From: Bacteroidales bacterium
Lineage (GTDB): Bacteria > Bacteroidota > Bacteroidia > Bacteroidales > UBA7960
Length of the DNA: 64,000 bases
Direction of reading: 5' to 3'
Assembly (NCBI GenBank): GCA_003559735.1
Contig: PWKN01000001.1
Coordinates: 2,327 to 66,326 of the forward strand
The translations under genes and the position numbers were made by a program. Below, in pieces: positions 32,954 through 58,500 of this stretch (position 1 is its first letter; every line of letters begins with the position of its first letter). The notes below the pieces were generated by a model, which worked only from the letters and a program-made list of their open reading frames with translations, did not search any database and was not told the DNA's origin.

Positions 32954-35872
32954 TTATTTCTTATTTACAGTGGACTGGTGTGTTTTCCGTATGATGGCGT
33001 TAATGATCATAGCCCTTTCGCTGTTTACCTCTTCCCTGAGGAGTTTGTCGGCTTCGCGGTCAAAATATTTTCTTCCATCCAACCAGGTTTGGTCGGGGAT
33101 AGAAAAAGATGACAACGGATGTCCGTTCCATATTACAAAATCGGCATCCTTTCCTGGCTCCAGTGACCCAACCCTGTGGTCAATCCCCATGATCTTTGCC
33201 GGGTGGAGGGTGATTAAGTTCATTGCATCGGACTCAGGTACCCCTGTCATCACAGTTTTTGCCGCCTCCCAGTTCATTCTTGTTGACAGCTGTGTGTTGT
33301 CAGAATGAAGGGCGGTTAGCACACCCACCTCGTTCAGCAGGCGTGCATTGTAGAGTATGCCATCATATGCTTCCACTTTGAATGATGACCAGTCCGACCA
33401 TACCACTGCAGCTGCTCCGTGCTCTTTCAACTCATCTGCAATTTTATACCCTTCGAGGGTATGCTCAAAAGAACCCACAGTAAAGCCGAACTCTTCTGCG
33501 AGTCGCATCATCATGAGCATCTCATCCTGCCGGTAGGCATGTACATGTGCCTTCCTGTGTCCTTCAATGACCCCGGCAATGGCTTCCAGCTGCAGGTCGC
33601 GGCGCGGAGGGAGTCCATGCTGGTTGTCCTCCCATCGTTGCCATGCAAGCCGGTACTCAACTGCCGCCTTCAATGCATCCCTGATCAATTGCTCAGTACC
33701 CTGCCTGGTGTTGGGATATCTTGATGACAATCGCTTTACATTTTCTCCAAGCGCCAGTTTCAGTCCGGGAGCCGCATCCTCTATCAGCATGTCAGCAGGC
33801 AATTGTCCCCAGCGCATCTTTACCACCGCATTTTGTCCGCCAATTGGGTTGGCTGAGCCATGATACAGGGTGGCAGAAGTGATGCCGCCGGCCAGCAGGC
33901 GGTATATCCATACGTTATCGGCATCTATTACATCTTTAATGCGTGTTTCTGAAGTGATGGCATCGGAAAACTCATTCACTCCGCCGGCAATGCTTGTATG
34001 CAGATGAGGGTCAATCAGTCCGGGAGTTACGTGCCTGCCCACGGCATCAACCTCTTTTGTCCCCCGTGGCACTTCCAGCTGATGACCCACTGAAACGATC
34101 TTCCCGGCTGATACCAGCAGATCAGCATTGTTCATTATGCCACCGGGACCCTGTGTCCATATGGTCGCGTTGCGAATAACCACGTGACCGGGTTGAACGG
34201 GCTTGCCTGGTATTCCATATGCCATGCCCGGATGGCGGACAGGCAGATCCAGGATCTCCCGGGATGACTTTTTCCGGTCATTGTTTGCATTTTCTGTTCC
34301 CTCATCGCGACTGGCCATCCAGCTAAAAGTACCGGTATTGCCGGTCGTTCCGATCCCAAGCATCTTGTTGTGGCGTACTGTGGCCGACATGTTACAGATC
34401 CCTTCCAGGCCAAGAGAATCACCTGGAAACCCAAAGGTCAGCCGTTCATTATCAAAACGCAGCCAGGTGAGCCTGGTGGCATTGTCATCGTGTCGTATGC
34501 TGCCGCGCAGACGGTTGTCGTCTCCTTCAATTGTGATCGTGGCCCCTTCCAAGAGACCTGCGGAAGCCAGGCGCCATGCTCCCTGCACTTTTTCGCGGAC
34601 CTCCCTGACCCTGTATTGAATTCCGTCAACCCAAACTGCTTCAATGGCTGTTGGCTCATTAAACAGGTCTGCGCCTGAAATTATGAAGCTGGCACTTTTT
34701 CCTGTTTCAAGTGTCCCGTAAAGGTGATCAATGCCAGCCAATTTTGCAGGGATGGTGGTAAGTGAGGCCAAAGCCACGTTTTTATCGAGGCCGCGCTCCA
34801 CTGCTGTCTGAAGGTTACTCAGAAACCTTTGTCCACTGCCGTAGGAGGTATAGGCCGTTTGAATGTTTGCTTCCGAAAGCTTTGACGGATTCGCGGGAGC
34901 CAGGTACCAATGGCGGAGATCCCCGAGCGATACGTCCATTTCTTGTTCCGGACTCATCACACTGGGCGGGTCAGGAAAATTGAGCGGCAGGATTACCGGC
35001 AACCGGGTGTGCACGATGGCATCCAAACGGCGGTACTCGTGTCCGCTCCCCAATACAACAGCATTCAGACTGAAGGAGTTGGCAATCTCCGAGGCCTTTA
35101 AAAACCAATGCTCGTTTTCAACGTCAAAAACAAAAGGAAGGTTCTGCTTCCGGGCCATGGCGATGCTGTTCAGGGCCTTGCTTGTTTCGGGTCGCGGTAT
35201 CCCTCTGTTCTTTCTGTAGTGTTCATGGGCGTCAATATACCATGCGGCATCCAGCAGGGTTTGCCGCATCAGGGCAACGGACCCCATAGCGGAAGAGGGG
35301 TATGAAGATCCAAGGTCATCTGATGGCCGGAAGGAGATCTGGTGGGAAATATCCGGACGGATCAGTTGCCGTGCAGCATCTCCTTCGCCCAAAGCCACTA
35401 TGCTTCCTTTTCCCCGGAAAATACCATGCGCCTGAAATACCTGTGCAACGACAAAACCCATCGAACGCAAAGCAGCCGCTTCTTCCCTTTCGGGCCTGAA
35501 ATGTTCGGCAGAGCTGTAATGGCTGCGAACCTGTGGATTCCAGTAATGATGGTCGTCCTTATCGGGACAGGGCATGCCATAGTGTGTCATCAGGTCTATA
35601 AAACCAGGGTAAACAATTCGTCCTGTTATATCAACCTGGTATGCATCGGGGGGAATTGTCACATCACGGCCTGCCGCCTCAATGATACCATCCCTCACAA
35701 CAATCGTTCCGCCAACGATTGTATTACCTGGTTCTATGACCAGCTTACCATTTGTCAGCGCAAAAACGGCCGGAGTATTCTCGCGCAATCCGGTTTGTCT
35801 GGCGGTTTGTGCAGCGGTTTGCAACGAAATTGAGAAACAAAATACCAATAACAAAAAACGTAGTTGAACCAT
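32954..35872 (-). CDS. Secreted two-module amidohydrolase family protein
   Basis: Signal peptide. First module PGFIDLMTHYG (HxH not intact). Second module PGLIDPHLHTS (HxH intact). 972 aa. Confidence 0.85.
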   Translation of the reverse strand: MVQLRFLLLVFCFSISLQTAAQTARQTGLRENTPAVFALTNGKLVIEPGNTIVGGTIVVRDGIIEAAGRDVTIPPDAYQVDITGRIVYPGFIDLMTHYGMPCPDKDDHHYWNPQVRSHYSSAEHFRPEREEAAALRSMGFVVAQVFQAHGIFRGKGSIVALGEGDAARQLIRPDISHQISFRPSDDLGSSYPSSAMGSVALMRQTLLDAAWYIDAHEHYRKNRGIPRPETSKALNSIAMARKQNLPFVFDVENEHWFLKASEIANSFSLNAVVLGSGHEYRRLDAIVHTRLPVILPLNFPDPPSVMSPEQEMDVSLGDLRHWYLAPANPSKLSEANIQTAYTSYGSGQRFLSNLQTAVERGLDKNVALASLTTIPAKLAGIDHLYGTLETGKSASFIISGADLFNEPTAIEAVWVDGIQYRVREVREKVQGAWRLASAGLLEGATITIEGDDNRLRGSIRHDDNATRLTWLRFDNERLTFGFPGDSLGLEGICNMSATVRHNKMLGIGTTGNTGTFSWMASRDEGTENANNDRKKSSREILDLPVRHPGMAYGIPGKPVQPGHVVIRNATIWTQGPGGIMNNADLLVSAGKIVSVGHQLEVPRGTKEVDAVGRHVTPGLIDPHLHTSIAGGVNEFSDAITSETRIKDVIDADNVWIYRLLAGGITSATLYHGSANPIGGQNAVVKMRWGQLPADMLIEDAAPGLKLALGENVKRLSSRYPNTRQGTEQLIRDALKAAVEYRLAWQRWEDNQHGLPPRRDLQLEAIAGVIEGHRKAHVHAYRQDEMLMMMRLAEEFGFTVGSFEHTLEGYKIADELKEHGAAAVVWSDWSSFKVEAYDGILYNARLLNEVGVLTALHSDNTQLSTRMNWEAAKTVMTGVPESDAMNLITLHPAKIMGIDHRVGSLEPGKDADFVIWNGHPLSSFSIPDQTWLDGRKYFDREADKLLREEVNSERAMIINAIIRKTHQSTVNKK

Positions 35873-36146
35873 ATGTGTGCAATTTTTCAGCCTTCAATAT
35901 GAGTAATGCAGGCCTGGATGTTGGCAGGGGTTTGGGTCCCTGTAACGAATTTTTAACTGAAACAAAAGGCTAAAATTAGCAATAAAAATCAATAACATTT
36001 GTGAAAACCATTCCCCATTTGTGGTATATATTCCCTGATCATGTCGGATTTTATATGTATATTAGGCCGAAAATGAACAATATGACCTGTTTATGAACAA
36101 TGGCATGTATTATGCCACCACAGGGTCTACCTGACAGAGGGTGTCG

Positions 36147-36175
36147 CCGGAAGCGCAAGCATCCGGTTCTTGTTT
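36147..36175 (+). terminator. Terminator-like or attenuator hairpin in the trehalose operon leader
   Basis: CCGGA-A-GC-GCAA-GC-A-TCCGG (GNRA tetraloop) followed by TTCTTGTTT, 31 nt before the ATG at 36206. Confidence 0.3.
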
Positions 36176-36205
36176 ACCAAAACACAATAAAAAAATGATA
36201 AACGG

Positions 36206-37762
36206 ATGAAAGAAGGGAAAAAACTAAAGGCAAAGGATATTGATGCATTGATCTTTGATCTTGACGGGGTGATCACCCAAACACGGGATACGCACAAAAA
36301 GGCCTGGAAACAGCTTTTTGACAGTTTTCTGGAGGAAAGAGGGATGAATGACCGTTTGGGTGAGGGCGATTATGAAGAGTATCTTGATGGCAAGCCTCGC
36401 TATGAAGGGGTAAAAAGCTTTTTGTTGTCACGGAACATCAGTTTGCCTTATGGCAGCGAGAATGATCCGTCTGAAAAAGAGACCGTATGCGGACTGGGAA
36501 ACAGGAAAAATGAGTTCTTTAACCGGTTGATCAGTAAAGAGGGGGCAGAAGTATACGACGAGGCCGTTGCAAGCCTCAGGAAATGGCGGCGCATGGGCAT
36601 CAAAACAGCTATTGTCTCATCCAGTAAAAACTGTAAGGCCATTATCGAAAAGGCTGGGATCGATCACTTATTTGATGTGCGTGTTGATGGGTTGGTAGCT
36701 GCTGAACGCGGCCTCAGCGGCAAGCCCGATCCCACTATTTTTCTTGAAGCTGCAAGAGAACTGGATGTCCGCCCCGAACGTTCCATTGTTTTTGAAGATG
36801 CCATTTCCGGGGTGCAGGCCGGACAGCGTGGGTTTTTCGGACTGGTTGTAGGGGTGGCCCGCTTTGACAACCGCGATGAGCTGTTGCGCCATGGCGCCGA
36901 TATGTGCATTGATTCATTTGATCAGTTCGATCTGTTTGGTGATGAACATATTGCCGGCTATTTCCGGTATACAAAACCCATGGTGTTTTCGGCAGGATCA
37001 GATGTGTTTGACATACTTAAGCAAAAAAGACCTGTGTTTTTTCTCGATTATGATGGTACCCTGACACCCATCGTCAACCGTCCGGAAGATGCACAGATCT
37101 CTGCCACCATGCGCAGTACCCTGTCTGAACTGGCCGGACGGTTCACTGTAGCGGTTGTAACCGGGAGGGATAAAGAGGATGTGGAGGACTTTATCGGATT
37201 GGATCAGTTGATATATTCGGGCAGTCATGGGTTTGTAACCTCCGGACCAGGAGGTATGTATATGGAACACGAACAATCGGAAGAGATCATCCGCCAGCTT
37301 GATCAAGCAGAAAAGGACCTTCACCGGCTGCTCGACAATAAGGGTGAAGGTGTGCAGATAGAACGCAAGAAATATGCAATTGCCGTTCATTACAGGAATG
37401 CACCGGAGAAATACGTGCCGCAGGTGATGGAAAGTGTTGACCAGTTGGTGGGAAAAGGAGAATCATTGAAGAAAGGCGAGGGGAAGAAAGTGGTTGAGGT
37501 GAAACCCGACATTGACTGGCACAAGGGCAAAGCGGTATGGTGGATAATGGAGGCCCTCGGACTGGACAAACAAAAGGATACGGTCCCTGTTTTCATTGGA
37601 GATGATGTTACCGATGAAGACGCCTTCAAGGTCTTAAAAGGCAAGGGTATAGGCATACTTGTCGAAAACCGTGGCCAGGAGACCTGCGCAGACTACAGTC
37701 TTAAAAACGTGTTCCAGGTAGAGCAGTTCTTTAAAAAAGTGATTGAGTTGTACGCCGGATAA
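36206..37762 (+). CDS. Fusion protein: beta-phosphoglucomutase-like HAD domain + trehalose-6-phosphate phosphatase domain
   Basis: N-terminal half: [25 protein letters not shown] (beta-PGM motifs). C-terminal half: [31 protein letters not shown] (OtsB-type motifs). Confidence 0.85.
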
Positions 37763-37783
37763 CCAATTGGAGTTTGTCAATGA

Positions 37784-40204
37784 ATGTCATGTGAAAAAAA
37801 TCAGCTTATGAGTGAAAACAACTGGCATATAGAATATGAAGAGTGGGATGCTTCCCGGCATCCACTGCAGGAGGCATTGTGTGCACTTGGTAACGGATAT
37901 TTTGTTACCAGGGGGTCGCTTGAAATGGAAAAAGACAACGAGTACAATTATCCAGGGACATACCTGGCAGGTGGGTACAACAGGATGCAATCCAGGATCC
38001 AGGGAAAGACCATTGAGAATGAAGACCTGGTCAACTGGCCCAACTGGTTGATGCTTACCTTCAGGATTAATGGCAATAAATGGTTCAGATTGAAAGATGT
38101 GCATGTCCTCGGGTTCATTACCTCCCTGAACATGAAGGAGGGCATCATGCTGCGCAAAATGCGTTTCAGGGATGAGGAGGGTCATATTACCACCATTATC
38201 AGCAGACGCCTGGTTAGTATGGACGATTATCATGCAGCCGGACTGGAGTGGACCTTTATTCCGGAAAACTGGTCGGGTAAGCTCACCATCCGGTCGGGGA
38301 TAGACGGGAACATCATCAATAACAATGTGGAAAGGTACAGCGATCTGAACCAGGATCATATTGAAGTAACTGGCAAGGGTGACTGGAATGCCAACACCGT
38401 TTTTTTGTCGGCACGTACCAAACAGTCAGACATCAGAATGACGCAGGCTGTGCAGACAAATTTCTTTATCCACCAGGAAAACCTCCATCTGGAACAACGG
38501 ATGGTGCAGCTGAAAAACGCTGTTGCGGGCGACTATGTTTTGGAATGCAAGAAGCTGGAACCTGTCAGGATAGAAAAACTGGCCCTCCTTTATACTTCGA
38601 AAGATGTGGCGATCAGTGATCCGGTGACCGAAGCAAAGAACCGGATCACCCGGTTAACAAGCTTTGCCCGTCTTGTCCGTGACCAAAAGATGGCCTGGCA
38701 GCGTATCTGGAATTATAACGATATGGTGATCGATTCATCCGATGAGGATCAGCAGGTGGTCCGCCTGCATATCTTTCATCTTTACCAGACAGTGTCGCAC
38801 AACAGCATCGATTATGATGTTGGCATACCCGCGCGTGGGTGGCATGGAGAGAGTTACCGCGGACATATATTCTGGGATGAGTTGTATATTCAGCCATTTA
38901 TCGACCTGCACAAGCCCCAGTTGTCCCGTTCATTGCTTCTCTACAGACACCGGCGTCTCCCTGAGGCATATGAAGCAGCCAGGGAAGCAGGGTTCAAAGG
39001 AGCGCTGTTTCCCTGGCAAAGTGGCAGCAACGGCAGGGAAGAAACACAGAAGATTCACCTGAATCCTGAATCCGGACGGTGGCTTCCGGATGTCACACAT
39101 CTGCAATACCATATCAACCTTGCCATTGCCTATAATGTATGGCACTATTATCAAAGTACGGGAGATGCCGACTTTCTCAATGCATACGGGGCTGAGATCA
39201 TTTTTGGGGTGGCTTTGTTCTGGTCAGACATTGCCAGTCATAACCCCAAACGCGACCGGTATGAAATTCACGGCATTATGGGTCCGGATGAATACCATAC
39301 ACACTATCCGGGAATTGAGAAACCCGGACTCAATAACAATGCATATACAAATGTGATGGCTGCCTGGGTTATTGGCCGGGCACTCAAGTTGCTCGATCTG
39401 CTTGATGATACTTCCTGCAAAGAACTGTCAGACAAGACAGGGATCACAGAAGAAGATGTCAAACGCTGGGAGGAGATCAGCCGCAAAATGTATATACCCT
39501 TTCATGAAAAAGAGATCATTTCGCAGTTTGAAGGGTATGGCGACCTTAAGGAGCTTGACTGGGACCATTACAGGGAAAAATACGGTGATGCGATCAGGCT
39601 GGACCGTATCCTTGAAAGTGAAAACGATTCACCAAATCACTATAAAGCAAGTAAGCAGGCTGATGTGCTGATGCTGTTCTACCTGTTTTCGACTGAAGAA
39701 CTGGAAGCGTTGTTTAACAGACTGGGATACGACTTTTCACCTGGTATGATCCCCAAAAATATCGAATACTACTACCAGCGTACATCACACGGGTCAACAT
39801 TGAGCCAGGTGATCCATGCCTGGGTGTATGCGAGGAGCCACCGGCGAAAATCGTGGAAAAGCTTTAAAACGGCGTTAATGAGCGACTTTAAGGACATTCA
39901 GGGCGGGACCACGCATGAGGGTATCCATCTGGGTGCAATGGCCGGTTCGCTCGATCTGTTGCAACGCTGTTATTCCGGATTGGAGATCAGGGATGATGTT
40001 CTCTGGCTGAACCCCTGCCTCCCCGACGACATACGTTCGCTATCATTTCACGTGCGTTACCGCAGCCATTGGATCAAGCTGGATATCGGCCACAAGAAGA
40101 TCAGCGTGGCGTTTTGCAAGGGATGGGCGAACCCGGTATATATTGCCGTAAAGGGACGGAAATACTATTTTGAGACCGACGACCAGAAACAGTTTTCACT
40201 GTGA
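37784..40204 (+). CDS. Glycoside hydrolase family 65 disaccharide phosphorylase (trehalose, trehalose-6-P or kojibiose type)
   Basis: About 800 aa GH65 layout and an IHGIMGPDEYH catalytic-acid segment. An alternative start at 37808 is possible. Confidence 0.9.
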   Translation: MSCEKNQLMSENNWHIEYEEWDASRHPLQEALCALGNGYFVTRGSLEMEKDNEYNYPGTYLAGGYNRMQSRIQGKTIENEDLVNWPNWLMLTFRINGNKWFRLKDVHVLGFITSLNMKEGIMLRKMRFRDEEGHITTIISRRLVSMDDYHAAGLEWTFIPENWSGKLTIRSGIDGNIINNNVERYSDLNQDHIEVTGKGDWNANTVFLSARTKQSDIRMTQAVQTNFFIHQENLHLEQRMVQLKNAVAGDYVLECKKLEPVRIEKLALLYTSKDVAISDPVTEAKNRITRLTSFARLVRDQKMAWQRIWNYNDMVIDSSDEDQQVVRLHIFHLYQTVSHNSIDYDVGIPARGWHGESYRGHIFWDELYIQPFIDLHKPQLSRSLLLYRHRRLPEAYEAAREAGFKGALFPWQSGSNGREETQKIHLNPESGRWLPDVTHLQYHINLAIAYNVWHYYQSTGDADFLNAYGAEIIFGVALFWSDIASHNPKRDRYEIHGIMGPDEYHTHYPGIEKPGLNNNAYTNVMAAWVIGRALKLLDLLDDTSCKELSDKTGITEEDVKRWEEISRKMYIPFHEKEIISQFEGYGDLKELDWDHYREKYGDAIRLDRILESENDSPNHYKASKQADVLMLFYLFSTEELEALFNRLGYDFSPGMIPKNIEYYYQRTSHGSTLSQVIHAWVYARSHRRKSWKSFKTALMSDFKDIQGGTTHEGIHLGAMAGSLDLLQRCYSGLEIRDDVLWLNPCLPDDIRSLSFHVRYRSHWIKLDIGHKKISVAFCKGWANPVYIAVKGRKYYFETDDQKQFSL

Positions 40205-40246
40205 ACGGATGGTTTCACTGAATTGTTAAGAAAAAAACATACCGTT

Positions 40247-42439
40247 ATGAGGCTAATCATTGTGTCTAACCGTTTGCCAGTTGCTGTCAGCAACTCGAAT
40301 GGCAAATTCAGCATGGAAAAAAGTGCCGGCGGACTCGTTTCCGGGTTGAGCGATTTTCTAAAGTCATTGAAAAACAATGCCAAAGGGGTTAGAGAATACC
40401 TGTGGCTGGGGTGGCCGGGCGATAAAATAGATAAGGAAGATGAGGAGTATGTTCGTCAGAAAGTGCAAAAAGATTTTAGTGCATCACCCATATTCCTGTC
40501 AAAAAAACTTATGGATAAAGTCTATCTGGGTTTTTGCAACCGCACACTCTGGCCTCTTTTCCATTATTTTCCGAATTATGCCCATTTTGATCTTGATTAC
40601 TGGTTCGAGTATAAGCGGATGAACAAGATCTTCTGCGATGAACTGCTCAAGGAGATCAGGGATGGCGATATCATCTGGATACACGACTACCACCTGATGC
40701 TGCTGCCGGCTATGCTCAGGGAACATGTATCCAATCCCATTGGCTTCTTTTTACACATTCCTTTCCCGTCATATGAGATGTATCGGATGCTTCACAAGGA
40801 GAGCCGGACAGAAATACTTGAGGGACTCATAGGCGCTGACCTGATCGGCTTCCATACCCACGACTATACCCAGCATTTTTTGCGTTGCGTATTGCGTATA
40901 CTGGGGAAGGAAAACCATATGGGCAAAATATCGATGCCCGACCATACCGTACAGGTGGATACTTTTCCGATGGGTATTGATTTTGATAAATTTTACCTGA
41001 TGGATGTGTCACCCTTTCCTTCAAACAAGCCCGGGAGGGGTGAACCCAGGATGGTACTTTCTGTCGACAGGCTCGATTATTCAAAAGGCATCATCAACCG
41101 TTTGCTTGGTTTTGAATTGTTTCTGAAACGTCACCCTGAATGGCACGGAAAAGTGTGTATGAACATGATCGTGGTCCCCTCGCGGACAGGCGTAGGGGCC
41201 TACAGGAAGATCAAAAGCAGCCTTGATGAGCTGGTGGGTAAAATCAATGGTTCCTATGGAAGCATATCGTGGACCCCCGTTATCTATCAATATACCTCGC
41301 TGCCCCACAAAGAGCTGATCGCTACCTACCGCAGAAGCGATGTCGCCTTGCTGACGCCCCTCAGGGATGGAATGAACCTGGTGGCCAAGGAATATATTGC
41401 CTCACTGGAAGACCATAGAGGGATGTTGATATTGAGTGAGTTTACAGGGGCGGCCAAAGAGTTGAGCGAGTCACTGGTGATCAATCCCAACAACATAGAT
41501 GAAATTGCAGAAGCCATAGAAGAAGCCCTGAATGTGCCAATGAAACAACAGATCAGGGGGAACAAGATCATGCAGAAACGCCTCAGACGCTACAATGTTA
41601 CGAAATGGGCCAATGATTTCGTGAACAAGCTGGTGGAAACCAGCCATATATCAAGGGACTCGGTGAGCAGGAAACTACTGAATCAGTCGTTGCTTCAACG
41701 GTTGACCGGTAATTTCAGAAAAGCAAAAAGCAGGATCATTATTGTGAATTACGACGGAACATTGGTGCCCTATACAAAATACCCGGCTTCAGCAGAACCA
41801 CCGGAAGCGTTGCTTAGACTGTTGAAAAACCTTGATGCACAAATCGAGACCGATATAGTGATCATAAGCAGCAGGGGGAAAGATGAGCTGGATGAGTGGC
41901 TTGGCGGACTCCCATTGAATCTGACGGCAGAACATGGCTCGTGGATACGCGAAGCAAACAACAATGAGTGGGCGTTGCTGAAACCCCTTTCATCTGAATG
42001 GAAAGAAGAGGTATTACCCATACTGGAAATGTATACTGACCGGCTTCCTGGCTCGTATATACAAGAACGGGATTATTCAGTCGCATGGCATTATCATAAG
42101 TCAGACATAGAACAGGCATCCCAATTGGTAAAAGAGGTGAATGACCATCTGTTGTCGATAACCACAAACATCAGTGCCCATGTGATCCACGGAAGTAAAG
42201 TGATAGAAGTCAGCAATTCAGGCATTAACAAAGGAGAACTTGCCATGCACTGGCTGTCACGAAAAGAGTATGATTTTATCCTTGCCATCGGCTCCGGCTG
42301 GTCTGATGAGTTGTTGTTCCAGACCATGCCCCCACATGCCTGGTCAATAAAAGTAGGGCTGGCACAAACGGCTGCCAATTATGTCGTTAAGGGACAAACC
42401 GATGCCATTGCCATTTTGGACAAACTCAGAGATCACTGA
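40247..42439 (+). CDS. otsA: Alpha,alpha-trehalose-phosphate synthase (GT20) fused to a degenerate trehalose-phosphatase-like domain
   Basis: MRLIIVSNRLP start, GFFLHIPFPS, VDRLDYSKGI, MNLVAKEY (OtsA). C-terminal domain is HAD-like but reads VNYDGTL and GSGWSDE where DxDGT and GDDxTDE are expected. The ORF track start at 40223 is a TTG. Confidence 0.9.
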   Translation: MRLIIVSNRLPVAVSNSNGKFSMEKSAGGLVSGLSDFLKSLKNNAKGVREYLWLGWPGDKIDKEDEEYVRQKVQKDFSASPIFLSKKLMDKVYLGFCNRTLWPLFHYFPNYAHFDLDYWFEYKRMNKIFCDELLKEIRDGDIIWIHDYHLMLLPAMLREHVSNPIGFFLHIPFPSYEMYRMLHKESRTEILEGLIGADLIGFHTHDYTQHFLRCVLRILGKENHMGKISMPDHTVQVDTFPMGIDFDKFYLMDVSPFPSNKPGRGEPRMVLSVDRLDYSKGIINRLLGFELFLKRHPEWHGKVCMNMIVVPSRTGVGAYRKIKSSLDELVGKINGSYGSISWTPVIYQYTSLPHKELIATYRRSDVALLTPLRDGMNLVAKEYIASLEDHRGMLILSEFTGAAKELSESLVINPNNIDEIAEAIEEALNVPMKQQIRGNKIMQKRLRRYNVTKWANDFVNKLVETSHISRDSVSRKLLNQSLLQRLTGNFRKAKSRIIIVNYDGTLVPYTKYPASAEPPEALLRLLKNLDAQIETDIVIISSRGKDELDEWLGGLPLNLTAEHGSWIREANNNEWALLKPLSSEWKEEVLPILEMYTDRLPGSYIQERDYSVAWHYHKSDIEQASQLVKEVNDHLLSITTNISAHVIHGSKVIEVSNSGINKGELAMHWLSRKEYDFILAIGSGWSDELLFQTMPPHAWSIKVGLAQTAANYVVKGQTDAIAILDKLRDH

Positions 42440-43370
42440 CGGTTGATGGCGGGTCCCCTGTCTGTTTATTGACCGCTACCCTGGTCTTTGGCAAACAATG
42501 TGGATATTCCCGCTGGATAAACTCCACGAGTTTTTCCCTTATATATACCCTGAGTTCCCAGGCATCGGGAGAGTTTGCCGCACTCATGAGTGCCCTGATC
42601 TCCAATGTGTGTTCCCGGGCATCGGTAACCTGCAATACATTCACTTTCTTATCCCAGTATTTGCATGATTCCAGCAACCTTGTAAGCTCGGTTCGCAGGG
42701 CATTAAGCGGAATGGTATAATCAGTATAGATGAATACCGTACCCAGTATGTCGGCAGAGGTGCGTGTCCAGTTCTGAAAGGGCCTCTCCATAAAATAGGT
42801 GGTGGGGACAACCAGACGGCGTTTGTCCCAGATCCTCACAACAACATAGGTAAGGTTGATCTCATCGATCCACCCCCATTCATTTTCCACGATCACCACA
42901 TCGTCCAGCCGGATCGGCTGGGTGATCGCAATCTGCAGTCCGGCGAGGATCGTGGCCAGCGCTTTCTGCGCAGACAGTCCGATGACCAATCCGGCGATCC
43001 CTGCCGAAGCAAACAAACTGATGCCTATGCTGCGGACTGCCTCGAATTGCATCAGGGTAATGCCAATGGCGATGACAATAATGATGAATACCAGGATCTT
43101 TTCTATAATGTTGTATTGGGTGTGCAACTTACGCACCTGAAGGTTGTCAGATACGCTCATGTCGTATCGCCTGAGTAAGCTGACCTTGGCAGCACGGATC
43201 AGGGCAATTATCGTCCAGGTTACGGCTGCAGCAAATAAAATATGCCCGGATACATGGATGGTCCGGTATACCTCGGCCGGAAAATCATTCAGGTACTGAG
43301 CAATGATGTTTGCTGATAACCCAAGTATGAATAACAATGCAGGCAGCAAAAAACGTTTCATTGTTCGCAT
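42426..43370 (-). CDS. Mechanosensitive ion channel (MscS family)
   Basis: Three to four TM helices followed by an MscS beta-domain-like segment (ITQPIRLDDVVIVENEWGWIDEINLTYVV). Its 3' end overlaps otsA by 14 nt. Confidence 0.85.
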   Translation of the reverse strand: MRTMKRFLLPALLFILGLSANIIAQYLNDFPAEVYRTIHVSGHILFAAAVTWTIIALIRAAKVSLLRRYDMSVSDNLQVRKLHTQYNIIEKILVFIIIVIAIGITLMQFEAVRSIGISLFASAGIAGLVIGLSAQKALATILAGLQIAITQPIRLDDVVIVENEWGWIDEINLTYVVVRIWDKRRLVVPTTYFMERPFQNWTRTSADILGTVFIYTDYTIPLNALRTELTRLLESCKYWDKKVNVLQVTDAREHTLEIRALMSAANSPDAWELRVYIREKLVEFIQREYPHCLPKTRVAVNKQTGDPPSTVSDL

Positions 43371-44845: not shown

Positions 44846-46270
44846 ATGGATCCAGACTCATTTCGTCATTATGGACACCAGTTTGTTGACTGGCTGGCCG
44901 ACTATTTCGAACATATCGGGCAACTCCCGGTAAAGTCTGCCGTAAAACCAGGCGATATCCTATCCAAACTGCCTGTTGAACCGCCTGTTTCAGGGGAATC
45001 AATGGATGACATATTTGTAGACTTTCAGCAGGTCATACTTCCCGGGATGACCCATTGGCAGCATCCGGGTTGGTTTGCCTATTTTCCCGCAAACAACAGT
45101 CCGCCATCGGTACTTGCCGAAATGCTGACCGCCGGACTGGGTAGTCAGTGTATGAGCTGGCAAACATCTCCCGCTGCAACGGAACTGGAAGAACGTGTCA
45201 CCGGTTGGCTCCGGCAAATGATCGGACTGCCTGACCATTTTAAGGGGGTCATACAGGATACGGCATCAACTGCGACACTGTGTGCCTTGCTGTCGGCGAG
45301 GGAACATGCAACCGGATTTGATGCAAATATGCGTGGGATAAAGGATCCGCTGACTGTGTATGCCTCTTCCGAGACACACTCAAGCATCGAGAAAGGGATG
45401 AAGATCGCCGGATTTGGGAGGGATAACCTTCGTCTTGTTGATACAAGGGATGATTTTTCCATGTGTCCGAAAGCACTCGAAAAAGCGATGGCACGCGACA
45501 TTGAAAATGGGATCAAACCCTCATGTGTCGTTGCAACACTGGGAACAACTTCGTCAATGGCCATGGATCCCGTTGATGAGATCGGACCGTTGTGCAAAAA
45601 ATACAAAACCTGGTTGCACGTAGATGCGGCATTTGCCGGTACTGCTGCGTCAGATCCGGATCACCGGTGGTTTATGAGCGGGACAGAACAGTGCGACTCC
45701 TTTGTGTTTAACCCGCATAAATGGATGCTGACCAATTTTGACTGCTCGGTCTATTTTGTAAAAAATGCCGGTATCCTGTTGCGTACCCTGGGCATTCAAC
45801 CTGAATACCTTAAGACAGGGGCCGATCAGCAGGTAAATAACTACCGGGACTGGGGGATACAGCTTGGACGGAGGTTTCGTGCCCTGAAGCTTTGGTTCGT
45901 GATCAGGTATTATGGTGTGGACGGAATTCGCAAAATGGTGAATAAACACATTGATCTGGCTGCATTGTTTGCAGAGTGGATAAAAGCCGATCCCCGGTTT
46001 GAATTGATGGCGCCTCAGCAACTCACGCTGGTGTGTTTCCGGTTAAATCCCGGAAACCTCCCGGAGAAGGAACTGCAGCGGGTCAATGAGGCTCTTCTTG
46101 ATGAAGTGAATAGTTCGGGGGAAGTATTTCTGACACATACCATGCTCAGGGGCAAATACTGTTTGCGGATGTCTGTCGGACAGCGTACCACAGACAGGGT
46201 TCACGTGCAGAAGGCCTGGGACCTTATCAGGAAGCCGGCAGAAAAACATCGAACCCCATACCCCGGGTGA
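44846..46270 (+). CDS. Group II PLP-dependent aromatic-L-amino-acid/tyrosine decarboxylase
   Basis: HWQHPGWFAYFP, DTASTATL, and FVFNPHKW (PLP-lysine motif). 474 aa. Confidence 0.9.
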   Translation: MDPDSFRHYGHQFVDWLADYFEHIGQLPVKSAVKPGDILSKLPVEPPVSGESMDDIFVDFQQVILPGMTHWQHPGWFAYFPANNSPPSVLAEMLTAGLGSQCMSWQTSPAATELEERVTGWLRQMIGLPDHFKGVIQDTASTATLCALLSAREHATGFDANMRGIKDPLTVYASSETHSSIEKGMKIAGFGRDNLRLVDTRDDFSMCPKALEKAMARDIENGIKPSCVVATLGTTSSMAMDPVDEIGPLCKKYKTWLHVDAAFAGTAASDPDHRWFMSGTEQCDSFVFNPHKWMLTNFDCSVYFVKNAGILLRTLGIQPEYLKTGADQQVNNYRDWGIQLGRRFRALKLWFVIRYYGVDGIRKMVNKHIDLAALFAEWIKADPRFELMAPQQLTLVCFRLNPGNLPEKELQRVNEALLDEVNSSGEVFLTHTMLRGKYCLRMSVGQRTTDRVHVQKAWDLIRKPAEKHRTPYPG

Positions 46271-48509: not shown

Positions 48510-51485
48510 ATGAATGTTCCTCTGGTAAAAATCAAAGAATACTGGACAACAGGACCCTTGTTTGTTCCGTTATCCGGAAACGGTCACTTTTCTGGTGGCG
48601 GTCTTCCTTTGCTGCATTTGTGCAGACTTGTGTTGTTGGTTCTGTTTTCCTGCTGCCAGCCTGCTTTTGCTGCACCTCCCCAATCAATACCATTGCATGC
48701 TGCCATGGAAAGCCATGCCGTACTGCCTGGACACATTATTTTTAAACTCACCCCAGAAGCACAAGAACAAAAAGGGGGACTGGAGCTATTGTCAGAACAT
48801 ATCAATGGCTTGTCGGGCACCAAGATCATGAACAGCCCCTACAGGCTGTTCCCCCGGCACGATGCCCCATCAGGGAAATCTCTTGCTGCCGGCCGGCCAT
48901 TGGTTGACCTTTCAAGGATCTATGAGGTGGTGATTGATGACCATGACCGCTTACCGGATGTGATCACAGCCATTGCATTGACTGGTTTGACCGAATATGT
49001 GCAACCACGGTTTATCCCGGAAACGCAACATTTCATTAAAGAACATACAGATACTGTATATGTGCCGAATGATCCCATGGCACCCGATCAGTATTACCTC
49101 GACAACATTGCGGCTTACCAGGCGTGGGCAATATCGCGGGGCGACACCAACACGGTGATTGCCATCGTTGATACCGGTGTTGACCTGTACCACCCTGACC
49201 TGGTCAATGCAATCAAATACAATTATGACGACCCCATCAATAGTGAAGATTCAGATGGTGACGGCTACATTGACAATTTTCACGGATGGGATCTGGGTGA
49301 GGGAAATAATGATCCAACCTTTAACCGGTCTGCCCATGGTCTGCATGTATCGGGCATTGCTGCTGCCAGTGCCGATAATGACGAGGGCATCGCCGGTGTC
49401 GGTTTTCATTCAAGGTTCCTCCCCGTAAAGGTTGATGACGAGTTTGGCCGTCTGGTCAAAGCATACGAAGGGATTGTCTATGCTGCCGATCAGGGTGTTG
49501 ATGTTATCAACTGTTCGTGGGGCAGCCACTTTTACCCTGGTCCGTTTGGCCAGGACATTATTGATTATGCAGTTTTTAACAGGGATGTGCTGGTTGTGGC
49601 CGCCGCAGGCAATGCCAATTCATCACAGCCATTTTATCCTGCCTCTCTGGATCACGTTGTAAGCGTGGCAGCTACCGATACCTTCGACAGGAAAACCGGG
49701 TTCTCAAGCTATGGTGCGTTCGTTGATGTTACAGCTCCAGGCATTGGCATAAAATCAACCTGGGTATACAATACCTATATGTCGTCGGGAGGGACCTCCA
49801 TGGCTTCACCGATCGTTGCCGGTGCCGCCGCCATCCTCAGGTCGTATTATCCAGCATATGACGCCATGCAAATTGCTGCCCTGTTAAAACTGTCGTCCGA
49901 TCCTGTTGATGAGGTGGAGGGAAACGCTGACTATGGCGGACAATTGGGGTATGGGCGTATCAATTTGCTGAAAGCACTCACCGAAACCGGACGACCTTAT
50001 GTCCGTGTCGTTGAAGACCTGTCTGGCGAAGAGAACCTTAAGGCAGTCAGACCGGGTGATCAGTTTGAAGTGGCGGTGCAGTTTCTAAACATCCTGGCCC
50101 CTGCCGGTAATGTTTCGGCTGTGCTCACAACCCCGTCAGACTACCTTGATGTACTAACGGATACGTTGTGGTTTGGCGGACTGGATAGTATGGCGTTGAC
50201 CGACAATGCCGCCAGCCCTTTTATTGTGAATGCCTTGTCTGACTTGCCTGTAAACCATGAAACCATTTTTACCATTTCCTTTTTTGACGGCGGCGGACAG
50301 ACCATTGGCCGCCACGCTTTGCGTCACGTGCTGAATTCTGACTATGTCAACATTCATGCAGGGGCCATCACCACAACCATTTCATCACTTGGTGCATTGG
50401 GATTTAACTATCCGTATTATTCACAGGGTAAAGGCCTTTTGTATAATAACGGCTATACCATGCTGCAATGTGGCGGTATAGTGGTTGGCAACAGCGTTGC
50501 CCACGTTGTTGATAATATATACGGGGCCCGGCAGGGAAGCTTCAGTGAGGTGCTGAAGCCACTCAGGTATCCGCGTGTGCACACCACCCATCCGGTCGCT
50601 CCGATCAAGGTGAGTGGCAGTGTCACTGACCAGACCGGTAACCACAGCGGTCCGCTGAACGTAGAAATCAGCTACAGGGCATACTTCTGGGATGACAATC
50701 CTGCAGAAGACTTTTTTATTCTGGACTATGCGGTCATCAACCATTCAGAAAAGACATACAATAACCTGTATGCAGGTTTTTTTGCTGACTGGGTGCTGCG
50801 AAACAACAAAATGCATCGCGCCGGCATCCATGTGCCCGCCAGACTTGCTTATGCATTTTCTGAGGAGGGTGGTCACTATGCAGGGATCCAATTGCTGACC
50901 GGCGGGGGAATGCGGCACTATGCTTTCGATAAGCAGGGAGCAGGGGGGAGTATGCAGATCAGCAAGGGATTTACAGATTTTAAAAAATTTACCGCACTCA
51001 CTTCAAACCGCTTCCAGGCGGGCCATTACAAGGACGACAACAACATTTCGTCGCTGCTGAGCAGCGGACCACATTTTGTTCACCCGGGCGATACGGTAAT
51101 GGTTTCTTTTGCAATCCACCTTGCTGAACATTTGCCGGATATGATAAAGAATACTGAAAAAGCCAGGGAATATTATCATATGCTGGAGAGCATACCTACT
51201 TCTGTTTCACCGCCTCCGCTGCTGGCACAGCCTGAGCTGCTGAAGGCTTACCCGAACCCTTTTTCCAGCCAGCTCACCGTCAGCATTAATGGTGAACCGG
51301 GACACCTTTACAGGCTGACGATGGCCGACCTGTACGGAAGAAAGGTCTATGCCGGTAATGTGAGACCCCTGGCAGATATGGAGAAAAAGGTAAAAATTCC
51401 TGTCCGGGGACTGCATCCGGGCATCTATGTCATCAGACTGGATAATGGATATGAAAATGCCGCTGTGCGGGTGATTAAATGGTGA
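48510..51485 (+). CDS. Subtilisin-like S8 serine peptidase with C-terminal T9SS sorting domain
   Basis: Catalytic triad contexts AIVDTGVD, SAHGLHVSGIAAA, GGTSMASPIVAGAAA. C-terminus LKAYPNPFSSQLTVSI...GIYVIRL...VIKW (Por secretion tail). Confidence 0.92.
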   Translation: MNVPLVKIKEYWTTGPLFVPLSGNGHFSGGGLPLLHLCRLVLLVLFSCCQPAFAAPPQSIPLHAAMESHAVLPGHIIFKLTPEAQEQKGGLELLSEHINGLSGTKIMNSPYRLFPRHDAPSGKSLAAGRPLVDLSRIYEVVIDDHDRLPDVITAIALTGLTEYVQPRFIPETQHFIKEHTDTVYVPNDPMAPDQYYLDNIAAYQAWAISRGDTNTVIAIVDTGVDLYHPDLVNAIKYNYDDPINSEDSDGDGYIDNFHGWDLGEGNNDPTFNRSAHGLHVSGIAAASADNDEGIAGVGFHSRFLPVKVDDEFGRLVKAYEGIVYAADQGVDVINCSWGSHFYPGPFGQDIIDYAVFNRDVLVVAAAGNANSSQPFYPASLDHVVSVAATDTFDRKTGFSSYGAFVDVTAPGIGIKSTWVYNTYMSSGGTSMASPIVAGAAAILRSYYPAYDAMQIAALLKLSSDPVDEVEGNADYGGQLGYGRINLLKALTETGRPYVRVVEDLSGEENLKAVRPGDQFEVAVQFLNILAPAGNVSAVLTTPSDYLDVLTDTLWFGGLDSMALTDNAASPFIVNALSDLPVNHETIFTISFFDGGGQTIGRHALRHVLNSDYVNIHAGAITTTISSLGALGFNYPYYSQGKGLLYNNGYTMLQCGGIVVGNSVAHVVDNIYGARQGSFSEVLKPLRYPRVHTTHPVAPIKVSGSVTDQTGNHSGPLNVEISYRAYFWDDNPAEDFFILDYAVINHSEKTYNNLYAGFFADWVLRNNKMHRAGIHVPARLAYAFSEEGGHYAGIQLLTGGGMRHYAFDKQGAGGSMQISKGFTDFKKFTALTSNRFQAGHYKDDNNISSLLSSGPHFVHPGDTVMVSFAIHLAEHLPDMIKNTEKAREYYHMLESIPTSVSPPPLLAQPELLKAYPNPFSSQLTVSINGEPGHLYRLTMADLYGRKVYAGNVRPLADMEKKVKIPVRGLHPGIYVIRLDNGYENAAVRVIKW

Positions 51486-55423: not shown

Positions 55424-55471
55424 CCGGATCCACGAAACATGGTTTGATGATGATGGTTTTCATTGGTGACC
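55380..55471 (+). repeat. Perfect 46-bp tandem duplication spanning the kdsC stop codon
   Basis: GGATCCACGAAACATGGTTTGATGATGATGGTTTTCATTGGTGACC at 55380-55425 and again at 55426-55471, followed by a partial third start (GGAT). Confidence 0.9.
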
Positions 55472-55510
55472 GGATGCCGGACTGCTGTTTGGGTTTTTAT
55501 CATTTTGCAG

Positions 55511-58500
55511 ATGAAACAAAGAGCGATTAATTGTGTACCAAAGAATGGTGTGCCTGTCTTTATGGCATACAGGATAATGCCATTTATACTGGCCTTCATT
55601 GCTTTTCTGCCAATGGCCGTTTCCCGTGATGTGGTCATTAACGAAGTTATGGCGTCCAATGCAACGACCATTGCCGATGAGGATGGTGATCATGAAGACT
55701 GGATTGAACTGTTCAACAGGGGACAGGATGCGGTGTCCCTTGCCGGTTATGGATTATCTGATGATTACGGGAATCCTTTCCGGTGGGTCTTCCCTGATGT
55801 GGTCATTGAGCCGGGCGCGTTTCTTCTCGTCTGGGCATCCGGAAAAGACAGGAGGTCGCCGGATAATCCCCTGCACACCAACTTCAGCATCAAAAGCGAT
55901 GGGGAGGAGGTACTGATCACCCATCCCGATGGTGAGCGCCTGGATGAGCTGGCTCCCATTCCGATCCCTTCCGATATTTCTTACGGCCGCAAACCTGACG
56001 GGGATGATCAGTGGTTCTTCTTTGCAGAACCTACACCGGGTGCAGCAAACACCACTCAGGGGACCACAGGTATCCTCGGGCCTCCGTTGTTTTCAGTGCA
56101 GGGAGGATTCCATCCTGGTCCGTTTGAACTCGAAATAGAACACCCTGATACCAGCGTAACGATCGTATACACTACAGATGGATCCGAACCTTGCATCAGT
56201 AACCTGGGGGGCACATCCTACCAGTACAAGAATGATTATCCGTTTTTCCCGGATGAACCCTTTGGTGATTTCCTGGAACACACATTCATATCATCAATTG
56301 TTGATGGTCCGTTGCTGATCGCTGACCGGACAGAAGAGCCGGACCGAATTGCAAGGATCTCTGCCACCGTGCAGTATCCTGACTACCTGCCTGATGATCC
56401 GGTATTTAAAGGCCGGGTGGTCCGTGCACGTGCCTGGAAAGATGGCATGCTGCCCAGTGACATCATAACCCACAGCTACTTTGTGTCATCTGTGGACGAG
56501 GAACGATTCAGTTTGCCGGTCGTTTCACTTACCACCCAGGAGAACCATTTGTTTGATTATAACGATGGAATTTATACACCGGGGGTGGATGCCGACCGGT
56601 GGCGCGAAAACAATCCGCATCAGACATTTCCCTGGCCCTATTATGGCAATTTTCGTCGCCGTGGCGATGAATGGGAATACCCGGCACACCTGGAGCTGTT
56701 TGAACATCCCGGAAAAGAGCGGGTGGTGGCACAGAATGTCGGGATCAGGATACATGGTGGTGCTACCAGGTCTTATCCGAACAAATCATTGCGTCTATAT
56801 GCGCGCAATCAATACGGTGATCCATATCTTGTGCACAACTTTTTTGGTGGTCAGACCGAAGGGTACAAGCGCCTGATACTGCGTAATTCGGGCAATGACT
56901 TTCCCACATCACTATGGCGTCCGGATTTCCCATCGCGCACCATGTTCCGCGATGCAGCCATCCAGGCCATTATGCGGACTTTGAGGATAGACACACAGGA
57001 ATACCGCCCGGCGGTCCTGTTTATCAACGGCGAATACTGGGGAATAATGAACATACGGGAGCGGTATGACAAACATTATCTCCACCGCAAATATGGAGTT
57101 GATGAAGAAAACATCGACCTGCTGACCGGCAGGGATGAGGTGAAAGAGGGAGACAACATCCATTACAATGAATTGATCGGTTATATGGAGACATATGGGG
57201 TGACAGATCAGGAACATTATGATTGGGCGCTGACACGGATGGATGAGAAAAACTTTATCGATTACCAGATCGCAAATATCTTTGCAGACAATACGGACTG
57301 GCCTGGTAACAATATTGACTACTGGCGGTTGCGTACGGGTCAGTTTCAGCCGGATGCCCCTTATGGTCATGACGGACGGTGGCGATGGATGCTGTTTGAT
57401 ATGGATTTTGGGTTTGGCCTGGTGGGAACGGCAGAAGCATACAGGCACAACACACTGGATTTTGCCACCACTACTCAGGGATCCAGCTGGCCCAATCCCC
57501 CCTGGTCTACCTTCCTGCTGCGGACGTTACTGGAAAACAAGTCGTTCCGCAACCAGTTCGTCACCCGGTTCGCTGACCTGCTCAATACCGCTTTTCTTCC
57601 TGAACGAACTACCGGGATAATTGCCCGGATGCAGGATGATATTGATGGTGAGATTGAAGAGCATTTTGCCCGGTGGGGTTATCCTGATGCCTATGCAGAC
57701 TGGCTTGGCCATGTTGATGTGATGACCGTATTTGCAGAAGAACGTCCATTTTATCAACGCCGGCACATCATGGAGCATTTTGGTTATGACGGGATGGTTG
57801 AGGTTGAACTTGATGTCAATGAAGAACATATGGGATATATCCGGATCAATACAATAGATATTGAACCCTCCACGGCAGGTGTTGATGAACATCCATATCC
57901 ATGGCAGGGATTGTATTTTAAAGGGGTGCCGGTTGAAATTGAGGCAATACCGGAACCAGGCCATAAGTTTTCGCATTGGGAGGGGGCATCCGGTTCTTCA
58001 TCCCCTGTTATCACCCTCGATACCGGCCATGACATCAACCTTACGGCACATTTCATTTTGGCGGATGAGCCCATCCTGATCCATTACTGGCTGTTTGATA
58101 CCGGTATGCCGAACAACACGCCCCTGGAAATACAGGACGCATTTTACAGTCTTACCAGCGGTGCAATGATTGAATACCTCAGCTCGCTGGTAGGATACCC
58201 TTATGACGAGCATCACCAGAACTGGAGAAAAGCATCGATGGAACGCCGCAATGCACCCACACCCATCAACTACCGTCCGGAAGGCAACAACCAACTGCTG
58301 TATCATGAGGTGGATATGCGGGGGTTGCAGGTCAGACAGCCATTCCGTGACCAGAACAGGGAAAATACCATGATCTTGCACCTGCCTTCGACCGGGTTCT
58401 CTGATCTTGTATTGCGCTTTGCAGCCAAGGATGAAGGGGCAGCCGGCAACCTGATCATCGATTACCAGGTAGATGCAAATACAGGCGACTGGATAACAAC

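Follow-up and report, generated by a model that had tools for sequence, protein, structure and literature searches.

We analysed a trehalose locus in a 64,000-nt stretch of DNA from a Bacteroidales bacterium (GenBank assembly GCA_003559735.1, contig PWKN01000001.1, positions 2,327 to 66,326 of the forward strand; this whole stretch is referred to below as the window, and coordinates are those of the window unless a locus number precedes them). The source is a metagenome-assembled genome (MAG) from soda-lake sediment, and the type IX secretion system (T9SS) sorting domains encoded by flanking genes agree with its assignment to Bacteroidota. The locus comprises three co-directional genes and a convergent MscS-like gene. 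Gene 1 fuses a haloacid dehalogenase (HAD) domain of the beta-phosphoglucomutase (beta-PGM) type to a trehalose-6-phosphate (T6P) phosphatase (T6PP); gene 2 encodes a phosphorylase of glycoside hydrolase family 65 (GH65) that we predict to be a T6P phosphorylase (TrePP); and gene 3 encodes a T6P synthase of glycosyltransferase family 20 (GT20) with a phosphatase-like domain at its C-terminus. The features are the following:

35873..36205 (+): upstream intergenic region of 333 nt, presumed operon promoter, divergent from the amidohydrolase gene at 32954-35872
36206..37762 (+): gene 1, 518 amino acids (aa), bifunctional beta-PGM-type HAD fused to T6PP (profile searches)
36239..36925 (+): N-terminal HAD-IA domain of gene 1, beta-PGM type, aa 12-240 (PDB 8h5s match, conserved residues)
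37025..37741 (+): C-terminal HAD-IIB T6PP domain of gene 1, aa 274-512 (TIGR00685, OtsB2 alignment)
37784..40204 (+): gene 2, 806 aa, GH65 inverting phosphorylase, predicted TrePP (EC 2.4.1.216) (Pfam, signature, loops)
40223..42439 (+): gene 3, 738 aa, GT20 T6P synthase with a predicted C-terminal pseudo-phosphatase (profile searches, alignment)
41744..42340 (+): T6PP-like domain of gene 3, lacking the nucleophile Asp (NYDGT) and the Asp pair of motif IV (GSGWSDE) (alignment)
42426..43370 (-): gene 4, 314 aa, MscS-like channel, convergent (MS_channel_2nd)

Genes 3 and 4 overlap by 14 nt (42426-42439). An independent gene call places the start of gene 2 at 37808 as an alternative to 37784, and for gene 3 the ATG at 40244 (MRLIIVSNRLP) is the more likely start rather than 40223. 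A first-pass annotation, made from the letters of the window alone, had described the same genes: its ORF positions agree exactly with ours, the translations contain all the motifs that it quoted, the 14-nt overlap is as it stated, and the profile hidden Markov model searches that it had called for returned the same domains for genes 1 to 3.

The enzymes encoded at the locus

The N-terminal domain of gene 1 is a predicted beta-PGM (EC 5.4.2.6). Its best match in the PDB is 8h5s, 'Beta-phosphoglucomutase' (1e-55), which covers the whole domain including the family-specific insertion, and the protein passes TIGR02009, a beta-PGM-family subfamily profile, with 158.4 bits against a cutoff of 153.35. 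The Lactococcus lactis beta-PGM residues D8, D10, T16, G46, R49, S114, S116, K117, N118, K145, E169 and D170 are all matched in gene 1. In its own numbering, the HAD motif residues of beta-PGM are D18, D20, S138, K173, E197 and D198, each kept in 73-78 of 79 orthologues, and the residues that contact the distal phosphate are present as G62, R65, S140, K141 and N142 (among the 79 orthologues, G in 77, R in 76, S in 78, K or R in 69 and N in 73). K45 of the L. lactis enzyme is replaced by an invariant Asp throughout the gene 1 family, just as it is in 8h5s. The latter is probably Rv3400 of Mycobacterium tuberculosis, which has been confirmed as a beta-PGM both in vitro and in vivo (2025 preprint).

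The phosphatase half of gene 1 exceeds the T6PP equivalog TIGR00685 by a wide margin (174.6 bits, cutoff 68), aligns to M. tuberculosis OtsB2 (PDB 5gvx, 1e-53), and carries the T6PP motifs DxD, S/T, K440 and GDDxTDE, which are invariant in 81/81 sequences. The OtsB2 alignment begins within the HAD domain: window positions 36743-37732 (gene 1 aa 180-509) pair with residues 90-415 of 5gvx. Since the N-terminal domain of OtsB2 pairs in this way with the C-terminal part of the gene 1 HAD, OtsB2 may have arisen from the same HAD::T6PP fusion through decay of the mutase half, and the N-terminal domain of the M. tuberculosis protein, so far enigmatic, appears to be the remnant of a gene 1-type HAD.

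That the fusion might be an assembly join or an annotation artefact of a metagenome bin can be dismissed with near certainty. Two independent MAG contigs (GCA_003567405.1 and GCA_003563955.1) encode proteins that match gene 1 with 100% identity, the homologues of gene 1 number in the thousands, and isolate genomes are among their sources.

Gene 2 contains the N, m and C domains of Glyco_hydro_65, all well above the Pfam threshold, with the catalytic acid E503 (GPDEYH) and a phosphate site formed by R351, S671, T672 and H715; these residues are invariant in the cassette family described below. GH65 phosphorylases were recognised by having such a phosphate site (K/R330, S631, S/T632, H675) rather than a catalytic base. 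The best PDB matches of gene 2 are 9lb6 and 9lb7, which are deposited as 'Trehalose-6-phosphate hydrolase', have the GH65 fold together with a phosphate site of R/S/T/H like that of gene 2, and represent, we infer, the TrePP structure of Feng et al. 2025.

The substrate of gene 2 is best judged from the positions that are known to track specificity in this family. Six correlated positions (64/392/394/402/416/585 in the numbering of CsKP, a kojibiose phosphorylase) distinguish the activities, T6P phosphorylases reading DQGQDE (De Beul et al. 2021, PMC8537180), and the Caldithrix abyssi enzyme with this signature makes T6P from beta-G1P (beta-glucose-1-phosphate) and glucose-6-phosphate (G6P), the latter being the sole acceptor among 46 (PMC8537180). 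Gene 2 has D, Q, G, Q, D and E at these positions. The same signature is found in 41/60 full-length GH65 enzymes of the cassette family, and the remainder vary conservatively, only to S64 or A/S394. Position 392 is E in kojibiose and nigerose phosphorylases, R in trehalose phosphorylases and V in maltose phosphorylases; it is Q in gene 2 and in 60/60 of the cassette enzymes. The loops follow the same pattern. T6P phosphorylases have a long loop 3, a long loop 7 and a short loop 11, as against three short loops in trehalose phosphorylases; in gene 2 loops 3/7/11 measure 24, 15 and 6, the same as in 9lb6 (CsKP: 24, 11, 5), and TrePP-like long loops 3 and 7 are present in 60/60 of the cassette enzymes. 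The motifs QxIHLN, WxPD, GDxxRxDRxL and GGTTxE are common to gene 2 and 9lb6.

All of the cassette GH65s compared (55/55 full-length sequences) score higher against 9lb6 than against kojibiose phosphorylase, and gene 2 itself reaches 422 bits by blastp and 462 by phmmer against 9lb6, as compared to 388 and 379 against CsKP, with these two as the characterised references and no trehalose or nigerose phosphorylase among them. Two points weigh against the assignment: position 416 is alignment-dependent at loop 3 of gene 2 (W or D), an ambiguity shared by 9lb6, and the identity of gene 2 to 9lb6, 32.6%, is no higher than the 33.1% to CsKP. Since overall identity does not discriminate, the TrePP call rests on the signature positions and the loops, and on these grounds gene 2 is likely a TrePP catalysing T6P + inorganic phosphate (Pi) <-> beta-G1P + G6P. 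Position 392 and the loop pattern disfavour a kojibiose, maltose or trehalose phosphorylase, though overall identity does not separate them. The TrePP-type reading of the first-pass annotation is thus supported by the DQGQDE signature and by loops like those of 9lb6.

Gene 3 matches Glyco_transf_20 (5e-144) and Trehalose_PPase (1e-36). Its GT20 half looks intact, with fungal Tps1 structures as best PDB matches (2e-120), and gene 3 scores slightly under the cutoff of the OtsA profile TIGR02400 (528.5 bits, cutoff 564.85). In a pairwise alignment to the gene 1 phosphatase, the nucleophile Asp is replaced by Asn (VNYDGTL against LDYDGTL) and the two aspartates of motif IV by SG (IGSGWSDE against IGDDVTDE), and the same lesions are kept in the gene 3 orthologues of loci L003, L005 and L006 at 72-81% identity. 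Judged by these residues the phosphatase-like domain is catalytically dead, a pseudo-phosphatase, just as the first-pass annotation had it. Despite the lost residues, gene 3 scores 896 bits against NF011071, a 'bifunctional' T6P synthase/phosphatase model with a cutoff of 634, so that automated annotation will over-call this family as bifunctional synthase/phosphatase. The converse arrangement occurs in a single case, a Prolixibacteraceae MAG (L082:5061-8170), where a synthase-phosphatase keeps its motifs intact (DYDGTL, GDDWTDE) and the next gene encodes a beta-PGM-type HAD that stands alone, with no T6PP fused to it; the window has a dead phosphatase on the synthase and the T6PP fused to the HAD.

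Distribution and neighbourhood of the cassette

The first-pass annotation regarded the fusion in gene 1 as unusual, which does not hold: gene 1 has 4,916 database homologues, the top 120 of which were checked for domains and all contain both HAD and Trehalose_PPase, and mycobacterial OtsB1 has the same architecture. A scan of one genome per species yielded at least 583 relatives of gene 1, some of which may be plain OtsB given that the search patterns were T6PP motifs. For the comparison of loci we took the best 80 of these at least 583 relatives with 10 kb on either side of each, which makes 81 loci with the window. The 80 loci span more than 15 phyla, archaea included. The bacterial carriers belong to Bacteroidota, Gemmatimonadota, Binatia, Desulfobacterota, Planctomycetota, Alpha- and Gammaproteobacteria, Omnitrophota, Nitrospirota, Actinomycetota, Chlamydiota, Elusimicrobiota, Atribacterota, Thermotogota and Latescibacterota, and the archaeal ones are GoM-Arc1 ethane oxidisers and a Pacearchaeote.

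Immediately 3' on the same strand, 69/80 loci have a GH65 homologue, which often abuts with a 0-nt gap or overlaps. The three domains occur in every state of fusion: HAD, T6PP and GH65 are separate adjoining genes in nine loci, including three Cytophagales isolates (Marivirga and two Pontibacter); HAD and T6PP form a two-domain fusion in about 68 of the 80; and in nine loci (Desulfobacterota, GoM-Arc1 archaea, Actinomycetota) all three are encoded by a single ORF of ~1,320-1,340 aa. Across the 80 loci, each of the three domains has kept its catalytic residues, which indicates that all three active sites are under selection. The pair of beta-PGM::T6PP and GH65 is a self-contained and widely distributed cassette. 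The genome survey for the fusion and its gene order that the first-pass annotation had suggested thus finds the fusion in relatives, and its view of beta-PGM and T6PP as enzymes on either side of the GH65 reaction gains comparative support from the 69 adjacent pairs, the nine single polypeptides and the phosphoenolpyruvate (PEP) synthase neighbours. All parts come from known families; the fusion is common yet mis- or under-annotated, the HAD::T6PP proteins being routinely named 'trehalose-phosphatase'.

The single-chain form leads to the mycobacteria. L054, a triple fusion from Actinomycetota, shares 70-78% identity with Mycobacterium proteins of the same HAD+T6PP+GH65 architecture, which are named 'trehalose-phosphatase', 'alpha,alpha-trehalase' or 'possible phosphorylase'. 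Rv2006 of M. tuberculosis is not among the matches listed, and the family link is made via these other Mycobacterium proteins; we take the domain architecture of Rv2006 to be HAD + T6PP + GH65. By this architecture, the OtsB1 (Rv2006) family of Mycobacterium is the predicted single-chain form of the cassette. OtsB1 is a protein of 1,327 aa without an assigned function or biochemical characterisation, whose mutant has no phenotype; it is regulated by DosR and KstR1 and has been detected only in carbon-starved cells. In the OtsB1-type forms of 1,319-1,338 aa, HAD, T6PP and GH65 all have intact catalytic residues and the GH65 signature reads S-Q-G-P/Q-D-E. In forms of 1,217-1,234 aa the HAD cap is lost (the equivalents of G46 and R49) and the HAD core residues are degenerate, while T6PP and GH65 are intact (the two lengths were compared as P0157, P0179, P0209 and P0235 against P0134, P0140, P0150, P0215 and P0220).

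The genes that recur beside the cassette are these:

GT20/OtsA: 11 loci; the exact gene order of the window again in L003, L005 and L006
PEP synthase: 9 loci; directly adjoining on the same strand in 5 loci of different phyla
Hexose-phosphate kinase of the 1-phosphofructokinase (1-PFK) subfamily: 8 loci
P-type ATPase: 7 loci
MscS-like: 6/81 loci; four are close relatives counting the window, plus two other loci
TreS-maltokinase: 5 loci
TreZ: 4 loci
TreT-like: 4 loci

Among the recurrent neighbours in the 80 loci there is no component of a phosphotransferase system (PTS) and no importer of trehalose. OtsA is not adjacent in 69/80 loci; where it is adjacent it belongs to the same operon, in most cases without a phosphatase domain and in Bacteroidales with a dead one. 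The PEP synthases (NF005057, 1070 bits) lie at L014:7551-9968, L055:9257-11650, L063:4795-7263, L035:5488-7932 and L077:7444-9840, with further ones in L017, L045, L052 and L067; the window has none. These neighbours suggest that the pathway is fed by gluconeogenesis.

Members of the 1-PFK family convert hexose monophosphates to bisphosphates, and it is pure speculation that the recurrent kinase (TIGR03168, 244 bits; L013:11796-12803, L019:14070-15008, L049:5234-6160, L033:4197-5246, L067:8660-9604, and also in L008, L012 and L073) makes beta-glucose-1,6-bisphosphate, the obligatory cofactor of beta-PGM. The recurrent P-type ATPase, a type IIA-like one for Ca2+/cations, is encoded upstream of the cassette at L055:2208-5195, L019:6972-9770 and in five more loci; the apparent operon of L055 has the order ATPase, fusion, GH65, PEP synthase. 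The closest Bacteroidales relatives carry a TreS-maltokinase fusion upstream, to which L006 adds TreZ (L004:13-2118, L005:6404-9703, L006:1661-4954, L006:5047-6909), and this would tie their operon to the route from trehalose via maltose-1-phosphate to alpha-glucan; in the window, two amidohydrolase genes take this place. A few kb upstream of the cassette, L036:4518-6743 and L040:5692-8519 encode a second GH65, which is divergent (25-29% identical), is preceded in L040 by its own standalone HAD, and might provide beta-G1P independently. Some ten of the 80 loci, representing seven or more phyla, belong to the Kulunda soda-lake sediment MAGs (CSSed, T1Sed), the series from which the window also derives; examples are L003, L004, L032, L053, L055, L059, L060, L063, L064 and L076. 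With sampling bias uncontrolled, this recurrence is a hint that the cassette is enriched in the habitat of hypersaline sediments or has spread there horizontally.

Gene 4 matches MS_channel_2nd (1.8e-11, 44 bits), all NCBIfam MscS models scoring far below cutoff. The first-pass annotation had placed this channel in an osmotic-stress module with the trehalose genes. The gene and its overlap with gene 3 stand; since only the close Bacteroidales relatives and two other loci have an MscS-like gene nearby, the case for the channel as part of the trehalose module is weak.

The remaining genes flanking the locus in the window (amidohydrolases, FeoB, a pyridoxal phosphate (PLP)-dependent decarboxylase, holA, a T9SS subtilase and CcmF) are functionally unrelated to it. 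The decarboxylase (44846-46270, +; Pyridoxal_deC, 8.5e-106) lies 1.5 kb past the MscS gene, and the T9SS C-terminal sorting domains are on two large secreted proteins, the subtilase and a CotH-kinase-domain protein (48510-51485 and 55463-59197, both +). An Rfam scan of the locus gave no RNA family match, and a promoter and terminator scan, which excludes Bacteroidota promoters, found nothing above chance, its sigma-70-type matches being at shuffle level.

Direction of flux

We propose that the locus serves trehalose synthesis as an operon whose two inputs would meet at one phosphatase, a proposal that includes the direction of flux and an osmoprotective role and whose chances we regard as about level. 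In the first input, which is the classical one, the GT20 synthase of gene 3 would make T6P from UDP-glucose and G6P, and this T6P would be handed to the T6PP domain of gene 1, since the phosphatase domain of gene 3 itself is predicted to be dead. The second input would dispense with nucleotide sugars: in gene 1 the beta-PGM domain would equilibrate G6P with beta-G1P, the GH65 acting as TrePP would join beta-G1P and G6P to give T6P and Pi, and the fused T6PP would hydrolyse T6P irreversibly, drawing the near-equilibrium pair of beta-PGM and TrePP forward. The net reaction of this input would be 2 G6P + H2O -> trehalose + 2 Pi.

Fusion normally unites steps of one pathway. HAD, T6PP and GH65 are found together in all fusion states, and only the synthetic order uses the three consecutively, which argues for synthesis. 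We count in the same direction the lack of an adjacent OtsA in most cassettes, the co-location with PEP synthase, an enzyme that acts only in gluconeogenesis, and the finding that no PTS component or trehalose importer recurs nearby. As for the energetics, the equilibrium constant of beta-PGM is about 28 in favour of G6P. Phosphorolysis of trehalose is unfavourable and yields at most 26%, and by analogy with trehalose phosphorylase the equilibrium constant of T6P synthesis would be about 8. Taken together, the two constants would place 2 G6P <-> T6P + Pi near equilibrium, and hydrolysis of T6P would make the route exergonic.

Several considerations pull the other way. Each member of the cassette is assigned by sequence comparison only, and this includes the substrate of the GH65. 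Gene 1 does not reach the beta-PGM equivalog TIGR01990 (109.6 bits, cutoff 189.4); the standalone HAD of Pontibacter likewise passes TIGR02009 only and not TIGR01990. The step from G6P to beta-G1P is uphill for beta-PGM, and the literature regards TrePP as degradative. In M. tuberculosis lacking the standalone beta-PGM Rv3400, beta-G1P rises 30-fold and growth on trehalose is poor (2025 preprint), and these data point to a catabolic direction for the related, unfused GH65/beta-PGM pair of that species.

The same chemistry could run backwards as a drain or buffer for T6P, with OtsA as the sole T6P source, TrePP and beta-PGM returning excess T6P to 2 G6P, and T6PP making trehalose; the cassette would then set the split between accumulation and recycling and avert a toxic build-up of T6P, and the net flux through the GH65 would be degradative. 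This would agree with the only physiological role known for TrePP, which is degradation in partnership with beta-PGM in Lactococcus, would run beta-PGM in its favourable direction, and fits the Rv3400 data, according to which beta-G1P is made and removed in vivo; moreover, the window and about 10 other loci have OtsA within the operon, and operons that mix synthesis and degradation, such as glgCAP, do exist. However, a drain would fuse two enzymes that compete for one substrate, with all three on one chain in nine species, and OtsA, TrePP and beta-PGM acting jointly would achieve no more than the consumption of UDP-glucose. In most cassettes OtsA is not adjacent, a route that feeds glycolysis is difficult to square with co-transcription with PEP synthase, and by keeping T6P low the T6PP would let mass action favour synthesis. 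On balance we consider the drain, the main rival of the synthetic reading, rather unlikely. A more conventional interpretation takes GH65 and beta-PGM for the classical catabolic pair, acting on another alpha-glucoside (trehalose, kojibiose or maltose) and merely co-located or fused with an OtsB-type phosphatase; in a variant, another phosphorylase would supply beta-G1P for trehalose, so that alpha-glucan or maltose would be turned into trehalose. Gene 2 is indeed as similar overall to kojibiose phosphorylase as to TrePP, but a kojibiose phosphorylase would have E392, a maltose phosphorylase V392 and a trehalose phosphorylase R392 with three short loops, against the Q392 and TrePP-like loops of the window and 60/60 cassette enzymes. 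The second GH65, or GH65 and HAD pair, in L036 and L040 and the recurrent TreS-maltokinase, TreZ and TreT-like genes do place interconversion of trehalose and alpha-glucan in the neighbourhood; the conserved linkage, however, is to a T6P-specific phosphatase and not to a sugar importer, and we think an ordinary catabolic pair decidedly improbable.

Known systems and implications

Trehalose synthesis by the cassette would reuse familiar components. Catabolism of trehalose in L. lactis, in which the PTS delivers T6P to TrePP and the beta-PGM PgmB, relies on two of the enzyme families found here and on identical reversible chemistry; that system is PTS-fed and has no T6P phosphatase, whereas the window locus has no PTS and its T6PP is fused to the mutase. 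The T6P phosphorylases CaGP of Caldithrix abyssi and that of Ca. Kuenenia stuttgartiensis (GH65 subgroup 22) share DQGQDE with gene 2, a comparison made by published signature with orthology unproven, and both organisms presumably lack a PTS. To the solved T6P-acting enzyme, the GH65 of gene 2 is only ~33% identical. With respect to OtsA/OtsB, the T6PP domain of gene 1 is of the OtsB type and closest to M. tuberculosis OtsB2. Gene 3 has the architecture of the fused synthase-phosphatases (TPSP) of Cytophaga hutchinsonii and Thermoproteus tenax and lies above the 'bifunctional' NCBIfam cutoff; the C. hutchinsonii enzyme ChTPSP is reportedly active. Unlike TPSP, gene 3 has lost the nucleophile and the motif IV aspartates of its phosphatase, a function that would have moved to the beta-PGM-fused gene 1. 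Mycobacterium OtsB1 has the same three domains in the same order, with the difference that the window locus keeps its GH65 as a gene of its own and includes a GT20 synthase in the operon.

The closest precedent for the synthetic direction is engineered. In vitro cascades of maltose phosphorylase, beta-PGM and TrePP make T6P (Taguchi 2020; a 2026 paper, which terms such TrePP-based T6P synthesis a 'new-to-nature' pathway). In these cascades TrePP is run synthetically and beta-PGM supplies its second substrate, as we propose for the cassette; they begin with maltose and end at T6P, and the cassette would be a natural version that ends in trehalose. In the body of literature that we searched, neither the cassette as a unit nor its equivalence to OtsB1 is described, and TrePP is nowhere given a biosynthetic role.

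Five routes to trehalose are found in textbooks: OtsAB, TreYZ, TreS, TreP and TreT. We tentatively suggest, as a possibility somewhat short of an even case, that the cassette and single-chain OtsB1 constitute a sixth pathway, independent of nucleotide sugars, fed by gluconeogenesis, present in >15 phyla, enriched in halophiles and sediments, and with a flux that would scale as [G6P]^2/[Pi]. If so, there would be a natural, UTP-saving route to trehalose in many phyla, and OtsB1 of M. tuberculosis, which is DosR-regulated and starvation-induced and has been without a function for about 20 years, would gain a testable one. It would also change how the capacity for trehalose is read from genomes, because the genes concerned are now annotated as 'trehalose-phosphatase', 'trehalase' or 'family 65 glycosyl hydrolase'. 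Should the cassette turn out to drain T6P, it would still define a widespread and unstudied module of T6P homeostasis.

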